Below, piece after piece: positions 1 to 53,899 of a stretch of 64,000 bases of DNA. Numbering within the stretch: the first letter of the stretch is position 1; each line of letters starts with the position of its first letter. Source of the stretch: Alphaproteobacteria bacterium (GTDB lineage Bacteria; Pseudomonadota; Alphaproteobacteria; MPNO01; UBA830); the NCBI GenBank assembly GCA_965243135.1, contig OZ251539.1, positions 2,016,001 through 2,080,000 on the forward strand, given 5' to 3'. Position numbers and translations under genes: made by a program. The notes under the pieces were generated by a model, which was not told where the DNA came from, did no database searches, and saw only the letters and a program-made list of their open reading frames with translations.

Positions 1-312
1 TCGCCCCGCACCAGATGGTACATGAACAGCCCGGTGTACGAGGCCCACTACGCGAGCGTCGTCCACAGCTGCTTGGAGGGCGTCGAGCCGGTGGCCGAGG
101 ACAGCGGCAGCCGGGGGCGCGCGGCGATCCGCGCCGGCGGGCGCGTCTACCTGTTCGAGTTCAAGGTGGTGGAGCGCGGGCGGGAGGGGACCGCGCTCGC
201 GCAGCTGCGGGAGAAGGGCTACGCGGACAAGTACCGCCGTCTCGGGCGTTCGGTCCACCTGGTGGAGTTCAGCCGCGAGGAGCGCAACGTCGTCGGCTGC
301 GAGGCCGCCTGA
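1..312 (+). pseudogene. 3' end of AAA-ATPase-like/PD-(D/E)XK (PDDEXK_9-type) nuclease gene, decayed and cut by the window edge
   Basis: YEAHYAS...GRVYLFEFKV...ALAQLREKGYADKY; near-identical to 1604-1945 but with six 6-nt deletions, one removing the D of GRADM. Confidence 0.85.
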
Positions 313-385
313 ACGGCTTCCCGTCAGCCGCCTCCGCGAAGGAACGCCGCCCGCAGCGCGGGACAGGCCTGCCGCCGCCGACTTC
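313..385 (+). repeat. ~75-bp intergenic direct repeat after AAA/PD-(D/E)XK genes (copy 1; copy 2 at 1946-2020)
   Basis: acggcttcccg...gccgcctccgcgaa.gaacgccgcccgcagcgcgggacaggcctgccgccgccgacttc follows both stop codons. Confidence 0.9.
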
Positions 386-414
386 TTGACGGTTCCGGCG
401 CGGCGGCCTAATCT
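386..414 (+). promoter_or_regulatory. sigma70-type promoter, probably giving a leaderless mRNA
   Basis: TTGACG (386-391), 17-nt spacer, TAATCT (409-414), ATG 6 nt later, no SD; near-identical element upstream of the paralog at 53906-53934. Confidence 0.7.
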
Positions 415-420
415 CTTCCG

Positions 421-1945
421 ATGGCGAAACGCATGCTTCCGATCGGCTTGACCTCCCTCCGGAAAATCCGGACGAAAGACTGCTACTACGTCGACAAGAC
501 GGACCATGTGCGCCGCCTCGTCGAAGAGGGCGATTACTATTTCCTGTCGCGTCCGCGCCGGTTCGGCAAGACCCTGCTGGTGGACACGCTGCAGGAGTTG
601 TTCGAAGGAAGCGAGGAACTGTTCCGGGGCCTCGCCGTGCACGGCAGGTGGGACTGGTCGATACGTCATCCTGTCGTGCGGCTGGATTTCGGCGGGGGCG
701 ATTTCGGCGACCCGGACGGAGTTCGGGAAGAAACGGAATCGCAACTGAAGGCGGCGGAGAGGCGGGCCGGCATCGAGCCGGGCAGCGCCAGAGTTTCGGT
801 CCGCTTCCGGGAACTGATCGCGGACCTGCACGAACGCACCGGGCAGCGGGCGGTGGTTCTGGTGGACGAATACGACAAGCCGATCCTGGACGCGCTCGGC
901 GACCGGGAGCTGGCGCGGGCCAACCGCGACTTCCTGCGCAGCCTGTACGGGGTGATCAAGGCCTGCGACAGGCATCTCCGTTTCGTTTTCCTGACGGGGG
1001 TGAGCAAGTTATCAGGCCTGTTCTCGGGCCTGAACAACCTGAACGACATCACGCTGGACGAGCGCTACGGCGACATCTGCGGTTACACCGAAGCGGAGCT
1101 GGACGCGGTCTTCGCCCCGGAGATCGAGGGCCTGGACCGGGACGAAATCCGCCGCTGGTACAACGGCTACAACTGGCTCGGACCGGAGAAGGTCTACAAC
1201 CCGTTCGGCCTCCTGCTGCTGTTCGACAAACGCAAGTTCGGCAACTACTGGTTCCATAGCGGCACGCCGACCTTCCTGGTCGAGACGCTGGCGCGCCGCG
1301 ACCTGCCCACTCCCGACCTGGACGGCATGATCGGCAGCGAGAGCCTGCTCTCGACCTTCGACGTGGACAATATCTCGGTCGAGGCGCTTCTGTTCCAGAC
1401 CGGCTACCTCACCATCGCCGGCGAGGAGGACGGGCGCTACAAGCTGGACTACCCGAACCTCGAGGTGCGCCGGAGCCTGGGCGAGGCCCTGCTGGGAGAA
1501 CTGCTCCCGGTCGAGGCGCGCAAGAAGACGGCGCGCCTGCGGCTGGGCGAACTGCTGGAAGCGAACGACTTCGAGCGCCTCGGAACCCTGTTCCGCGGCG
1601 TCTTCGCCGCCATCCCGCACCAATGGTACGCGACCAGCCCGGTCGCGAAGTACGAGGCCCACTACGCGAGCGTCCAGCTGCTTCCTGATGGAGGGCTTCG
1701 AGCCGGTGGCCGAGGACAGCGGCAGCCGGGGGCGCGCCGACATGGCGATCCGCGCCGGCGGGCGCGTCTACCTGTTCGAGTTCAAGGTGGTGGAGCGCGG
1801 GCGGGAGGGGACCGCGCTCGCGCAGTTGCGGGAGAAGGGCTGCGCGGACAAGTACCGCCACCTCGGGCGTTCGGTCCACCTGATCGGGGTGGAGTTCAGC
1901 CGCGAGGAGCGCAACGTCGTCGGGTTCGATTGCGAAACCGCCTGA
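421..1945 (+). pseudogene. AAA-ATPase-like domain plus C-terminal PD-(D/E)XK nuclease, frameshifted near 1675
   Basis: YYVDKT, SRPRRFGKT (Walker A), VLVDEYDKP (Walker B); nuclease tail continues in another frame (1688-1945); 5 nt missing relative to the upstream copy. Confidence 0.88.
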
Positions 1946-2407: not shown

Positions 2408-2888
2408 GAAGCGCCGGCCGCGCGCGCGAAGTCAACGAGGCTTCGGCGCCCCTGGAGGGCGGCTTTCGCTGTCCGGCGCCGTCCGGCTTCTCTGCGCGCC
2501 GAGCACGGCGAGACTCCACCCGTCGAGCCTTCCCTTGGCCACCCGTTCGCCAAGTTTGGACACCTCGCCGCGGAGCGACGCGACATCGGCTCGCAGCGAA
2601 GTGAAATCGCGGCGCAATCCCGCGATGCTTTCGTTCGTGGACGTCCGCGACGCCTCCAATCTCTCGTTCATGTCCATGCGCAACACTGCGATTTCCCTGC
2701 TCGTAGCCATGCGTCCTTCCAACGCGGCCAGCGCAATCCCGACTCCGAGTATGGTCCGCAATTCCGTCTTCATCGTTCCGTACCTCCGGGACGCCCCCGG
2801 CAGCCTCTCGCCGGAGCCGGTTGCAGCCTCAAGCTCCTCTTCCGCCCGACCAGCTGCAACCGGCGGAATAGCAGGAATCGCTCCCGAG
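2408..2888. repeat. segmental duplication, copy 1 (copy 2 at 6133-6723)
   Basis: near identity from gaagcgccggccgcgc to atcgctcccgag, covering the CDS and upstream region. Confidence 0.9.
2432..2773 (-). CDS. small N-terminally membrane-anchored coiled-coil protein (short paralog of 6157-6609)
   Basis: MKTELRTILGVGIALAALEGR..., GGAGG SD; one 11-aa repeat unit; two 6-nt deletions versus the paralog. Confidence 0.65.
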   Translation of the reverse strand: MKTELRTILGVGIALAALEGRMATSREIAVLRMDMNERLEASRTSTNESIAGLRRDFTSLRADVASLRGEVSKLGERVAKGRLDGWSLAVLGAQRSRTAPDSESRPPGAPKPR

Positions 2889-3545: not shown

Positions 3546-4160
3546 TTACAGGAGCTTGACCAGGATGGCGACGAGCCCGACGGTGGCCGTGCCGGCGCCG
3601 AGGGCGGTGCTGATAGCGATGCGGAGGATTTTGCTTTCGAGTCCCGAGATCCCGGCGTCGATCTTGGCCTCTATCTTGGCCTCTATCTTGGCGCTCTCGG
3701 ACTTGATTTCGCCGCGGAGCAGATCCGCGGTCTTGTCGATCTTGCCGTCGATCTGCGCAATGTCGGACTTGAAGTCGCCGCGGAGCTGCGCAATGTCGGA
3801 CTTGAAGTCGCCGCGAAGCTGCGCCGCGGTCTTGTCGAGTTTGACTTCGAGCTGCGCAATGTCGGACTTGAAGTCGCCGCGAAGCTGCGCCGCGGTCTTG
3901 TCGATCTTGCCGTCGAGTTTGACTTCGAGCTGCGCTATTTCGGACTTGAAGCCGCCGCGAAGTTGCGCCGCGGTGCTGTCGATCTTGGCGTCGAGCCTGG
4001 AGATGTCGCCTTTGAGATCGCCGATGTCCAGCTTTGTCGCGACGCCTTCGGTGAGAGCGTCTCCAGTCATGACGACGACGGCGTCGGCTTGATTCTCGGG
4101 AAATCCGGCCGCCGTGAGAGCCTGTTTGGCGCGGAGCGTGTCGAAGGCGACTGCAGGCAT
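3546..4160 (-). CDS. DUF1640/CCDC90-like coiled-coil protein with C-terminal membrane anchor
   Basis: head motif FDTLRAKQALTAAGFPENQADAVV, neck VATKLDI, repetitive stalk, hydrophobic C-terminus; GGAGGA SD before ATG 4160. Confidence 0.85.
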   Translation of the reverse strand: MPAVAFDTLRAKQALTAAGFPENQADAVVVMTGDALTEGVATKLDIGDLKGDISRLDAKIDSTAAQLRGGFKSEIAQLEVKLDGKIDKTAAQLRGDFKSDIAQLEVKLDKTAAQLRGDFKSDIAQLRGDFKSDIAQIDGKIDKTADLLRGEIKSESAKIEAKIEAKIDAGISGLESKILRIAISTALGAGTATVGLVAILVKLL

Positions 4161-4222
4161 GGCTTCCTCCTGAAGACTAAGCGAGGTCGAGACGTCCGGC
4201 GACAATCTCCCGAACCGGGCGG

Positions 4223-6156: not shown

Positions 6157-6609
6157 TCAACGAGGCTTCGGCTCCCCTGGAGGGCGGCTTTCGCCGTCCG
6201 GCGCCGTCCGGCTTCTCTGCGCGCCGAGCACGGCGAGACTCCACCCGTCGAGCCTTCCCTCGATATTGGCCACCCGTTCGCCAAGTTTGGACACCTCGCC
6301 ACGGAGCGACGCGACATCGGCTCGCAGCGAAGTGAAATCTTGGCGCAATCCCGCGATGCTTTCGTTCGTCGATATGCGCAATGCCTCAATGCTCTCGTTC
6401 GTCGATATGCGCAATCCCGCGATGCTTTCGTTCGTCGATATGCGCAATGCCTCAATGCTCTCGTTCGTGGACGCCCGCGACGCCTCGAATCTCTCGTTCA
6501 TGTCCATGCGCAACACTGCGATTTCCCTGCTCGTAGCCATGCGTCCTTCCACGATCAACGCAGCCAGCGCAATCCCGACGCCGAGTATGGTCCACAATTC
6601 CGTCTTCAT
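6157..6609 (-). CDS. N-terminally anchored coiled-coil protein with four 11-aa repeats
   Basis: TM-like WTILGVGIALAALIV then alternating STNESIEALRI / STNESIAGLRI; GGAGG SD. Confidence 0.7.
   Translation of the reverse strand: MKTELWTILGVGIALAALIVEGRMATSREIAVLRMDMNERFEASRASTNESIEALRISTNESIAGLRISTNESIEALRISTNESIAGLRQDFTSLRADVASLRGEVSKLGERVANIEGRLDGWSLAVLGAQRSRTAPDGESRPPGEPKPR
6343..6474. repeat. 4 x 33-bp coding tandem repeat in A-B-A-B order
   Basis: gcgcaatcccgcgatgctttcgttcgtcgatat alternates with gcgcaatgcctcaatgctctcgttcgtcgatat. Confidence 0.92.
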
Positions 6610-7614: not shown

Positions 7615-9263
7615 CAGAAATTCCCGCTAAGGTGGCCGCCCTTTGCGAAAGGCGCGTCGAGATAGCGTCGTTACCGAGGGACCAGCCGCCGCGACGCACC
7701 TTCCCCGCTTCGGCTTGGTGCCGACTTAGCCTTGACCATCCTGTTTCCCCTGAAAAACTTGCTTTAGCACATTCGGTCACGGTGCCAGGTCAGGAGGTGT
7801 CGTAGGGAATTCCCTCTGCTTTCCGGTATCCAAACGCGATCATTCGGTAGAGTGTTTCCCAGTCCTTCAAGAAGTATTCGAGAAACAATCCCCGCGCCTT
7901 TTCCCAGAAGTAAATGGGCCGCTTGGCCTTCGTTTGCGCCTGTTGGAACAGTTTGCAACATCGCTGTTGAATCTGGTCAATCAGGAACGCCAGCATCATC
8001 AGGAACGCAAAGACCGTCGACAGATTCTTGTTACCGTGACCGAAGTTGTGCTCAAAGCAGTAGCCTTGGTTCTTCAGGGTGTTGAAAGTTTCGTTCTCGA
8101 TCTTCCAGCGCGCCCGCCCGGTGCGCATCAACTCCATCAGGTTCCCTTCGTCAATTGGCAGATCCGTGACCCAGGAGAAACGTTGTTTCTTGCCGTTTGG
8201 GAGCTTCTCCCAGTATTCGAGAAAGTTCACTTTGAGGTCGAAGTGCGTATCGTTCAGAGGCACTCCGTTAAGATACCGGAATTCGTGCCGTATGTTGTCA
8301 CCGTCCGTGAACTCCCGGCGCTCCACGGACGGCGCGTTGTTGACCCACTCGAACAGGAACTTGTGGTCGCCGGGCTTCGCCCCCAGTATGAAACGCATGT
8401 CTAACTCCTTGAGAAGATTGGCATGCGGTCCGTTCGAGGCCAGCCCATCTTCCAACACAACCAGCTTCAGGTGCGGGTGTTCGCGACGCACATCTTTCAG
8501 AAGCCGTTTCGCTGCGTTGCGTTCGCAATCGTTCTTTTTTGCGCCGTCTTCCTTCAGGATCGGTTCCGGTGCAAACGGAAAAACCTCCTTTTGTTCCGGA
8601 TGCACCAGAACGGCTCCCAACATCTGGTGGTAGTAGGTAATCGTACCGTCGCGGTGGTGTTTCTCGCAGCAATTTTTACAGTGCACCTTGTCCGACGAGA
8701 AGTATCCCGTTCCATCGATCGAAAGAGCGTAATGCCCGTTCAGACAAGTGTATTCTTCCAATCCCTTGCCTCGTTGCAAAACCTGGAACATCTTCGTGAA
8801 ACAACGCCGCAATTGCCGCGGACAGACTTCGTCAAGCCGTTCGCGCATCGCAGTGTCCGACGGCACGCGCTTGACGCCGTATAAGGTCGCGAGGTTGTGC
8901 CGAACCACTTCGTCGGCGTGCGCGGCCTCGTCGAATTGCAGAAGCGACGCATACTTCATACCGAACACCGCTAGACCCGACATCAGACAGTCCGTCTGGT
9001 TCAGCCCCCTGCTCGCGATCGGATCTTCGATACGGTCGAAACAAGCTCGCACTTCCTTCAGCAATCCCGGAGCGCTGAGCGTCTTGCGCATGCCTGGCAT
9101 TCTGGCCATTTTGGTTACAATCCCGCCTCGCCTTCGGACCACTTTCCAGAGAAAAATGCTCCGCTCGAAGGCAAATAGCCCCGAATCACCTCGAAAAGTC
9201 CACGAAAGACTTTTTTCCGGCCCCATATTTTTCAAGGGTTTCGAGCCTTAGCGGGAATTGCTG
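7615..9263 (-). mobile_element. complete insertion sequence with 18-bp imperfect terminal inverted repeats and 9-bp target-site duplication
   Basis: CAGAAATTCCCGCTAAGG (7615-7632) / CCTTAGCGGGAATTGCTG (9246-9263); GGTCGTGTG at 7606-7614 and 9264-9272; visibly lower GC than the flanks. Confidence 0.92.
7790..9109 (-). CDS. DDE transposase (IS4-superfamily fold, ISNCY-like), intact
   Basis: SIDGTGYF, LEDGL, GRARWKIENETFNTLKNQGY motifs; start placed at MARMPG (9109). Confidence 0.9.
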   Translation of the reverse strand: MARMPGMRKTLSAPGLLKEVRACFDRIEDPIASRGLNQTDCLMSGLAVFGMKYASLLQFDEAAHADEVVRHNLATLYGVKRVPSDTAMRERLDEVCPRQLRRCFTKMFQVLQRGKGLEEYTCLNGHYALSIDGTGYFSSDKVHCKNCCEKHHRDGTITYYHQMLGAVLVHPEQKEVFPFAPEPILKEDGAKKNDCERNAAKRLLKDVRREHPHLKLVVLEDGLASNGPHANLLKELDMRFILGAKPGDHKFLFEWVNNAPSVERREFTDGDNIRHEFRYLNGVPLNDTHFDLKVNFLEYWEKLPNGKKQRFSWVTDLPIDEGNLMELMRTGRARWKIENETFNTLKNQGYCFEHNFGHGNKNLSTVFAFLMMLAFLIDQIQQRCCKLFQQAQTKAKRPIYFWEKARGLFLEYFLKDWETLYRMIAFGYRKAEGIPYDTS

Positions 9264-9814: not shown

Positions 9815-9930
9815 CGTCGATCCTGACTTCTATTTTGGCGCTCTCGACCTTGATTTCGCCGCGGAGCTGCGCCGCGGTCTTGTCGATCTTGGCGTCGAGT
9901 TTGACTTCGAGCTGCGCGATGTCGGCGTCG
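9815..9930 (-). pseudogene. internal fragment of a DUF1640-like coiled-coil gene
   Basis: closely matches the stalk repeats at ~3660-3930 (DIAQLEVKLDAKIDKTAAQLRGEIK). Confidence 0.75.
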
Positions 9931-52351: not shown

Positions 52352-53899
52352 TCAGACGGTCTCGAACTCGAACCCGACGATGTTGCGCTCCTCCCGGCCG
52401 AACTCCACCCCGATCAGGTGGACCGGCACGCCCGGACGCCGGTGCTTGTCCGCGTAGCCGCGCTCCCGAATCTGCGCCAGCGCCCGGCCTTGCGGCTTCC
52501 CGTCCGCGACCTTGAACTCGAACAGATAGACGTTGCCGTTGTACAGGAGCGTCAGGTCCGAGCGGCCGCGCGCCGTGCTCTCCTCCGCGCGGACGTCCAT
52601 GCCCGCCGCCACGAAGTGCGAATAGAACACGCTCGCGTAGTGCGCCTCGTAGCCGGCCATGCCCGTGTTCGCGTACCACTCGTTCGGGATGCTCGCCAGG
52701 AACGCCCGGAACAGATTCTCGAGGCCGGCGAAGTCGTTCGCCCGCATCAGGCGGCGCAACTCCCGGCTCTCCGCCGCGACCGTGACCTCCGGCGCCATCG
52801 CCTTCAGCAGAAGCGCGTTCAGACTGCGCTTCACCTCCTGGTTCGGGTAGTCCAGCCGGTAGAGGCGCGTGTCTTCGTCCCGCTCCTCGTCGACGATGGT
52901 CAGATAGCCGGTCTGGAACAGCAGCGCCTCGACGGGAATGCGGTCGACGTCGATGGCCGACAGCAGCGCGTCGTCCGCGACCAGATCCTCCAGGGCCGGC
53001 GGCGCGAACCGGCGCCGCGACAGAAGGTCGGCGAGAAAGGTCGGCGTGCCGGTCTGGAACCAGTGCGCCTCGAACTCGCGCGTTTCGAAGAGAAGGAGAA
53101 TGTCGAACGGGTTGTAGACCCTCTCCGGCCCGCGCCAGTTGTAGCCGTTGTACCAGCGCCGAACCTTCTCCCGGTCCAGGCCCTCGAGTTCCGGGGCGAA
53201 GACCGCGTCCAGCTCGTCGTCAGTGTAGCCGCAGATGGCGCCGAAACGCGGATCGAGGGTGATGTCGCGCAGGTTGTTCAGGCCCGAGAACAGGCCCGCC
53301 TGCGAGAACTTGCTCACGCCGGTAAGGAAGGCGAACCGGACATGCGCGTCGCAGTCCTTGACGACGCTGTAGAAGCCGCGCAGGAAGTCGCGGTTGGCCA
53401 GCGCCAGTTCCCGGTCGCCGAGCGCGTCCAGAATCGGCTTGTCGTATTCGTCGACCAGAATGACCGTCCGCTGCCCGGCGCGCTCGTGCAGCGTCCTTAT
53501 CAGGCGCCGGAAACGGACCGCCGCCCCGGCGGGGCCCGGTTCGAGGCCGGCCAGCCGTTCCGTTTCCTCCAACTGGTCTTCCACGTTTCCCCGAACGAGA
53601 TCCGGGGAGTCGAAATTGCCCCCGCCGAAGCTGATCCGCACGACGGGATGGCGCGCCGACCAGTCCCACTTGCCGTGTATGGCGAGATCGCGAAACAGCT
53701 CCTCGCTTCCCTTGAACAACTCCTGCAGCGTGTCCACCAGCAGGGTCTTGCCGAACCGGCGCGGACGCGACAGAAAATAATATTGACCACCCTCGACAAG
53801 GCGGCGGACATGGTCCGTCTTGTCGACGTAGTAGCAGTCCATCTCTCCCCGGATTTTCCGGAGGGAGGTCATGCCGGTCGGCAGCATGCGCTTCGTCAT
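52352..53899 (-). CDS. AAA-ATPase-like domain plus PD-(D/E)XK nuclease protein, intact
   Basis: SRPRRFGKT, LVDEYDKP, GRSDL...YLFEFK; paralog of 421-1945. Confidence 0.92.
   Translation of the reverse strand: MTKRMLPTGMTSLRKIRGEMDCYYVDKTDHVRRLVEGGQYYFLSRPRRFGKTLLVDTLQELFKGSEELFRDLAIHGKWDWSARHPVVRISFGGGNFDSPDLVRGNVEDQLEETERLAGLEPGPAGAAVRFRRLIRTLHERAGQRTVILVDEYDKPILDALGDRELALANRDFLRGFYSVVKDCDAHVRFAFLTGVSKFSQAGLFSGLNNLRDITLDPRFGAICGYTDDELDAVFAPELEGLDREKVRRWYNGYNWRGPERVYNPFDILLLFETREFEAHWFQTGTPTFLADLLSRRRFAPPALEDLVADDALLSAIDVDRIPVEALLFQTGYLTIVDEERDEDTRLYRLDYPNQEVKRSLNALLLKAMAPEVTVAAESRELRRLMRANDFAGLENLFRAFLASIPNEWYANTGMAGYEAHYASVFYSHFVAAGMDVRAEESTARGRSDLTLLYNGNVYLFEFKVADGKPQGRALAQIRERGYADKHRRPGVPVHLIGVEFGREERNIVGFEFETV

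Follow-up and report, generated by a model that had tools for sequence, protein, structure and literature searches.

Why should a decaying gene lose its DNA in pieces of nearly one size? The question is raised by the first 2 kb of the stretch analysed here (the window), 64,000 nucleotides (nt) corresponding to bases 2016001-2080000 of one 6.10-Mb contig. Two neighbouring copies of a gene encoding a protein with AAA-ATPase and PD-(D/E)XK nuclease domains, which we call A and B, differ there by a series of short gaps. An earlier note on this window read the gaps as the trace of a fixed-length deletion process in genes under decay. We find that the observation extends beyond a local oddity, to about 300 events genome-wide. 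On balance, we think it probable that the gaps are instances of a real mutational signature of this genome: deletions of 5-7 nt without junction homology, led by AT(C), and concentrated in hot spots. The genome (a single contig, 98.8% complete) falls in Alphaproteobacteria in a search with the MutS domain, and its nearest relatives, which include Kiloniellaceae, Stellaceae, and Caenispirillum, are 85-88% identical. The sequence of the window is contained in 14 public runs from five studies, mostly sponge metagenomes.

Copies A and B are the last two genes of a four-gene tandem array, D-C-A-B (the coordinates of all features are in Table 1). Both domains score above the Pfam gathering threshold: PF09820 with 199.6 bits (421-1674), and PF08011 with 49 bits in B (1688-1942) and 34.4 bits in A (1-309). 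The gene of copy A starts at genome position 2014841, 1,160 nt upstream of the window, with a CTG codon instead of ATG. Six hexamers are present in B and absent from A, as the earlier note had described: GCCATC (1609-1614), CGCGAA (1644-1649), TCCTGA (1683-1688), CGACAT (1738-1743), ATCGGG (1883-1888), and GTTCGA (1924-1929). The corresponding junctions in A fall at about 5/6, 35/36, 73/74, 122/123, 260/261, and 296/297 (adjacent positions separated by a slash). A pairwise MAFFT alignment of A and B has four clean 6-nt gaps and two messy spots. The latter arise because B lacks 5 nt while A has an extra A (at window position 15) and a 13-nt tandem duplication, and a four-way alignment including the upstream paralogs C and D resolves all six gaps. 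The missing segments are present in every outgroup, that is, in C, in D, in the copy at 52 kb, and in the family consensus. The gaps are thus deletions in A, not insertions elsewhere. One of them takes out the putative catalytic aspartate, that of the D...EFK motif, as had been proposed. The 13-nt duplication (ATTTTCGCCCCGC twice; genome 2015988-2016013) lies across window position 1, adjoins one of the 6-nt deletions, and is the sole clear small duplication that we noticed in copy A.

Copy B has losses too. The 5 nt said to be missing near 1675 are ATCCA (junction 1674/1675, genome 2017675), and their loss shifts the frame ahead of the nuclease domain. The gap of two codons reported for B (SKLSG versus SKFSxAG) is borne out by the alignments; it is a 6-nt gap (CTCGAA) common to copies A, B, and C. 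Upstream of the window, copy A carries further deletions of 5 nt and 7 nt, as well as an 11-nt gap that reads as 5 + 6 nt (TACGA is an individual entry in the genome-wide event list, which also includes the deletions of A at genome positions 2016074, 2016123, and 2016261). The family alignment described below gives copy A a total of 10 events of 5-11 nt. The statement that each gap measures exactly 6 nt holds for the six in the window; it fails as a description of the size class, which is 5-7 nt, since the same copy has 5- and 7-nt deletions upstream.

To survey deletions genome-wide, we compared the genome with itself and kept matches no shorter than 300 nt and no less than 85% identical. The state in most partner copies at a repeat decided the polarity of each gap, and a clean-flank filter (at least 8 matched bases on either side of the gap) removed aligner noise. 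Among the 146 derived deletions with clean flanks in the genome's repeats, 132 measure 5-7 nt (58 of 5 nt, 61 of 6 nt, and 13 of 7 nt). The remainder comprises ten deletions of 1 nt, none of 2 nt, one of 3 nt, one of 4 nt, none of 8-9 nt, one of 10 nt, and one of 11 nt. The looser count without the filter gives 158 deletions of 5 nt, 129 of 6 nt, and 20 of 7 nt. Indel lengths in the repeats are thus not geometrically distributed but peak at 5-7 nt. For a control, a shortened form of this gap-polarising script was applied to 394 kb of a genome of the same genus, G004. The gap counts there fall monotonically, without a peak (585 of 1 nt, 88 of 2 nt, 23 of 3 nt, 22 of 4 nt, 4 of 5 nt, 3 of 6 nt, and 1 of 7 nt).

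Could such a peak result from selection for the reading frame? This would give a 6-nt peak restricted to translated genes, with equal peaks at 3 and 9 nt. We found one deletion of 3 nt and none of 9 nt, against the 58 of 5 nt and 13 of 7 nt. The family of A and B holds 82 of the 341 events of 4-8 nt, the others being in insertion sequences (IS) and other repeats. The ratio of 5-nt to 6-nt deletions is 19:27 inside this family and 106:66 outside (Fisher p=0.018). Deletions of 5 nt are thus the commonest class outside the family and outnumber those of 6 nt, which shows that frame selection is not the cause of the peak. The excess of 6-nt deletions within the family, whose members are mostly open, is the pattern to be expected if selection filters a real mutational input of 5-7 nt.

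The family itself (PF09820/PF08011) is massively expanded in this genome, with 177 blastn matches, and its 121 near-full-length copies often form tandem arrays. It amounts to about 3-4% of the 6.1 Mb. The same family has 22 matches in G004 and between 0 and 11 in the other genomes compared. We aligned the 60 copies at least 85% identical to B and counted the distinct deletions carried by a minority of them: 6 of 5 nt, 13 of 6 nt, one of 7 nt, and one of 11 nt. The alignment also shows four events of 1-2 nt and none of 3, 4, 8, or 9 nt. The load is very uneven, with 40 of the 60 copies free of any 5-7-nt deletion and three copies carrying 7-10. Deletions persist where selection has ceased to act, in dead IS copies and dead paralogs of the expanded family; those surviving in live genes are for the most part in-frame losses of 6 nt at positions that tolerate them. 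In another genome of the genus, G002, all four copies of the family (C2:2658609-2659873, C2:2761214-2762466, C2:308469-309728, and C1:665807-667066) are split into two frames at one place, near residue 83. The coordinates of the matches suggest that about 7 nt are missing, which may reflect a single, inherited event in the size class seen here.

We then analysed the junctions of 236 distinct deletions of 5-7 nt, obtained after dropping copies with identical context. For 119 of them the gap has no alternative placement, a fraction to be compared with 0.53 under the null, and junction microhomology is at the level of chance. Since the alternative placements match the random expectation, these are not slippage events, in agreement with the view that the gaps are neither homopolymer nor tandem-repeat slips. 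About 10 events are true tandem-unit slips. A start at AT on one of the strands is possible in 137 of the 236 events (null 0.08). The third base after this AT is C in 47 of 75 deletions of 5 nt, 30 of 51 of 6 nt, and 9 of 11 of 7 nt, while many of the events without AT begin with GTC or TTC. TC stands at deleted positions 2-3 in 146 of 236 events (null 0.23). At the other end, G is the base following the deletion in 34 of 75 events of 5 nt and the last deleted base in 33 of 51 of 6 nt. The GC content is 49% in the deleted strings and 64% in the flanks. In short, the preferred start is 5'-AT, mostly ATC, followed by GTC and TTC, and what is removed is a locally AT-richer half-turn of DNA. The gaps in the window fit this motif on one or the other strand (ATCGGG, ATCAGG, ATGTCG, ATGGCG, TTCGCG, ATCGAA, ATCCA, and ATCGTG).

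Not one of the 61 apparent insertions of 5-7 nt is a tandem duplication. As these share the motif of the deletions, they are deletions whose polarity was assigned the wrong way round. The events show no replication-strand bias (56 versus 70, p=0.25) and no signal of flanking hairpins (mean stem 1.9 versus 1.65 under the null). A GATC or GANTC context was considered and rejected, as neither G nor GA is enriched ahead of the motif. Taken together, the size spectrum and the junction statistics support the claim of a deletion process of narrow length that is neither slippage nor frame selection. The earlier note had recognised the narrow size, and had missed that AT(C) leads the deletions, that the class includes lengths of 5 and 7 nt, and that it extends over the whole genome.

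The IS of 1,649 base pairs (bp) found in the window gives an idea of the tempo of the process. This element has the ends CAGAAATTCC...GGAATTGCTG and a 480-amino-acid open reading frame (ORF) without Pfam match, and we did not find it in four genomes of the same genus. No deletion is seen in at least 13 copies that are 100% identical, nor in about 8 others at 98.8% identity. Among diverged sub-lineages, six copies have 3, 3, 4, 6, 11, and 17 deletions of 5-6 nt. Relative to the active copy, these six show 37-43 synonymous and 21-25 nonsynonymous differences and 0-1 stop. The differences being mostly synonymous, the six copies diverged while still functional and died only recently. Sister copies that are 2-10 substitutions apart differ by 3-11 gap runs, so that in dead DNA these deletions accumulate no more slowly than all substitutions combined. 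A second active IS family, of about 2.8 kb, has the ends GTAAGCGTTC...GAACGCTTAC and makes 8-bp duplications.

The same sites are hit on different flanking haplotypes. When a deletion is shared by several copies, the nearest flank (±80 nt) belongs to a non-carrier for 39 of 41 carriers, often with zero differences. Different deletions also overlap at one spot, at columns 439/441 of the IS and at columns 1535/1536/1538 and 403/404 of the family. At IS column 386, a lineage-specific base lies 7 nt left of the deletion in the carrier d375387 and is lacking in the carrier d3065958, which argues against conversion from d3065958 into d375387. For 95 of the 236 events an intact copy exists elsewhere with identical context (20 + 20 nt), and for five of them the flanks are identical for 150-300 nt, showing that events are not fixed by the local sequence.

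Several observations weigh against a genuine genome-wide signature. Only 8 of the 45 ATC sites of the 1,649-bp IS are hit, some of them twice, which indicates that the motif found so far is incomplete and degenerate. Across the 60 paralogs, the number of deletions is uncorrelated with that of private substitutions (Spearman about 0); a simple age-dependent model would predict a correlation, and an artefact would predict none. Over 3.2 kb (L001:1-3200), four public runs gave 597-2,092 pieces, in a tangle of 150 paralogs, with no 5-6-nt insertion relative to the window listed and unitigs too short to demonstrate that reads bridge the junctions. A 35-mer spanning a junction had no match in a collection of metagenome contigs, and the 79 distinct loci found with the family alignment reached at most 58% identity and included none from this species. 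We did not see the signature in the only relative sampled, G004 (394 kb), so it is either lineage-specific or assembly-specific. In the conserved C-terminal region, some of the apparent recurrence could be due to short-tract gene conversion. Finally, we know of no enzyme or repair pathway with this size and motif, and any mechanism is thus a conjecture.

The most serious alternative is that the deletions are absent from the cells and were introduced in the assembly or consensus, during the calling, correction, or polishing of reads in diverged repeat copies that are hard to place. The genome appears to be a single contig derived from a metagenome, the runs that contain the sequence are sponge metagenomes, and no junction is confirmed in reads. 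The length window is unnaturally sharp, with 1-nt indels nearly absent, and the independence of deletion load from private substitutions and the lack of a peak in G004 point in the same direction. On the other side, the local sequence does not determine the events, as shown by the intact copies with flanks identical over 20 to 300 nt. The letter-identical copies of the 1,649-bp IS argue for a very accurate consensus. Near-identical duplicates share the same deletions, as if inherited (276655/1362832, 1912297/1922425, and the inverted pair 417980/477066). Furthermore, in-frame 6-nt events are enriched in a gene family that is still largely functional, and the 5:6 ratio differs between live and dead sequences. 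The title listings and opening lines of abstracts in the literature that we searched hold no description of such an artefact, nor of such a spectrum. We regard an artefact as unlikely, if still the strongest competitor of a real signature.

The mechanism proposed in the earlier note, in which a transposase, through abortive transposition, or a resident nuclease makes staggered double-strand cuts of 5-6 nt that are trimmed and joined end to end, fares worse. An enzyme with a fixed stagger would fit the narrow size and the sequence preference, and the genome has candidates for it: the 121 near-full-length copies of the AAA-ATPase/PD-(D/E)XK nuclease family, and a protein of 407 amino acids with a partial NucS_C-like PD-(D/E)XK domain. 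However, Ku and the LigD primase-polymerase were not found in this nearly complete single-contig genome by searches that matched in control genomes. The fill-in products that staggered breaks should leave are lacking, with no tandem duplication among the 61 apparent insertions. Target duplications are 9 and 8 bp long in the two active high-copy IS families, and a survey of families that have 4 or more copies at no less than 99% identity detected no active one with duplications of 5-6 bp. The motif is asymmetric, whereas a palindromic consensus would be expected of a dimeric cutter, and G004 has 22 matches to the nuclease family without the signature in its 394-kb sample. Staggered cutting followed by end-joining is thus not supported, and we hold it to be highly improbable; more generally, the process is not canonical end-joining, slippage, or the footprint of the resident high-copy transposases. 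That a few old deletion alleles were spread by short-tract gene conversion and kept by frame selection is extremely unlikely: many deletions are indeed common to several copies, the paralogs are visibly mosaic, and C-terminal flanks are too similar to reveal conversion tracts, but this scenario explains neither the length window nor the AT lead, and it is at odds with the predominance of frame-breaking 5-nt events outside the family, with 236 distinct events across many unrelated repeat families, with the overlapping but different deletions at the same spot, and with the lineage-specific base at IS column 386.

If the signature is real, what could produce it? The repair genes of the genome give some indications. 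MutS and MutL are present, and deletions of up to 4 nt are depleted whereas those of 5 nt or more are not, matching the expectation for loops that escape from repair: insertion/deletion mispairs are bound by bacterial MutS when they are no larger than four nucleotides (PMC8235422). We propose, tentatively and with more doubt than confidence, a loss on one strand followed by such an escape. A short segment starting at AT would be lost from one strand, which would be sealed without resynthesis, leaving a loop of 5-7 nt opposite the shortened strand. Loops of 4 nt or less would be recognised and repaired by the resident MutS/MutL, giving the sharp floor at 5. The ceiling of 7 would be set by how far the initiating activity reaches, or by the greatest length at which a short oligonucleotide can still fall off. 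The initiating activity would prefer the 5' side of AT(C), so that both the motif and the ceiling would be attributed to the initiator. A more specific version seems to us distinctly improbable: an activity not yet described would excise a half-turn (5-7 nt) of one strand from 5'-AT(C) and reseal it, the loops being just too large for MutS, and would be the dominant agent eroding and inactivating IS and surplus paralogs. Such an activity may be connected with the AAA-ATPase/PD-(D/E)XK family and its 121 copies, or with the kind of damage typical of a sponge habitat.

Known enzymes offered few leads. A type IB topoisomerase (PF01028) was not found in the genome, and the events have no repeat context, which led us to reject the deletion signature of this enzyme. 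The ultraviolet-damage endonuclease UvdE was rejected as well, being absent from all 13 genomes searched; a photolyase is present. RNase HII is also present, and there is thus no evident defect in ribonucleotide repair. Canonical NucS, a two-domain protein of about 230 amino acids that usually occurs in genomes lacking MutS/MutL, was not found, and since MutS and MutL are present we rejected the NucS/EndoMS pathway. The sole match, partial, is the NucS_C-like domain of the 407-amino-acid ORF (genome 2513107-2514327, minus strand; L009:721-1941), with 31.7-33.8 bits over profile positions 2-71 of 124; this ORF has no other Pfam match.

The comparison with processes described elsewhere shows partial resemblances. 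The deletional bias in the decay of bacterial pseudogenes, reportedly described by Mira, Ochman and Moran in 2001 and in studies of Rickettsia pseudogenes, shares with our case the shrinking of dead DNA by small deletions, the excess of deletions over insertions, and the protection of live genes by selection. Its spectra are said to be broad and rich in 1-nt events, whereas here 5-7-nt events dominate, with an AT(C) lead and recurrent hot spots. The eukaryotic topoisomerase-1 signature of 2-5-bp deletions ('ID4'), reportedly established by Reijns et al. in 2022 and by work in yeast, is likewise imprinted by an enzyme, made only of deletions, narrow in size, and associated with a short motif. 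It depends on a type IB enzyme and on short tandem repeats or microhomology, whereas in our genome the gene was not found, microhomology is at chance level, and the sizes are larger. End joining by Ku and LigD also leaves small deletions with little or no junction homology, but of variable length and accompanied by insertions and fill-ins, which we do not see here.

Two other systems are instructive. In the repeat-induced point mutation (RIP) of fungi, duplication triggers C-to-T transitions in the sexual cycle. As in our genome, some repeat copies bear many instances of a single stereotyped lesion at a short motif, and others bear none; RIP is triggered by the duplication, whereas here repeats are simply where deletions can be seen. 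The mismatch endonuclease NucS/EndoMS leaves 5' overhangs of 5 nt with the lesion at their centre, and would give a unit of 5 nt with a damaged base in the middle. In our 5-nt class, the middle base is the C of ATC. On the other hand, the match to NucS_C is weak and partial (33.8 bits at best), MutS and MutL are present, and the end-joining genes were not found.

A genuine signature would reveal a bacterial mutational process with an enzyme-like imprint (fixed length, lead motif, deletions only, no homology) that outpaces all point substitutions in neutral DNA. It would change how the age of pseudogenes and the erosion of genomes are read in this lineage, show in a natural setting where MutS-based repair reaches its size limit, and suggest that a sponge symbiont has a DNA-nicking or excision activity still to be discovered. 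If excision of half-turns were the cause, bacteria would in effect have their own, deletion-based equivalent of repeat-induced mutation, and mutational signatures would gain a new class. Were the deletions an artefact instead, they would represent an undescribed systematic error of long-read metagenome assembly in diverged repeats, one that creates false pseudogenes.

Table 1. Position in the window of the features discussed in the text.
Feature	Position	Strand	Description
Copy A, 3' end (decayed paralog)	1-312	+	Part of PF08011 PDDEXK_9; from Pfam and alignments
Paralog B	421-1945	+	PF09820 AAA-ATPase_like and PF08011 PDDEXK_9
Shortened coiled-coil duplicate	2432-2773	-	Two in-frame 6-nt deletions, junctions near 2722/2721 and 2536/2535
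Longer coiled-coil copy	6157-6609	-	Undeleted comparator
Active 1,649-bp insertion sequence	7615-9263		9-bp target duplication ggtcgtgtg; undeleted reference for six decayed copies
Intact distant paralog (515 amino acids), same family	52352-53899	-	Outgroup: missing segments are ancestral

A pair of coiled-coil ORFs in the window is affected as well. The two 6-nt gaps that the earlier note had seen in the shorter duplicate are confirmed by the comparison with the longer copy, and can be placed as ATCGTG and as ATATCG/TATCGA. The duplicate is also shorter by three 33-nt repeat units, and the resulting difference of 99 nt is found between the copy at 2432-2929 and the longer one. The coiled-coil ORFs at 3546-4205, 6157-6609, and 9816-9925 are built of repeat units of 33 and 66 nt, whose number varies between copies.

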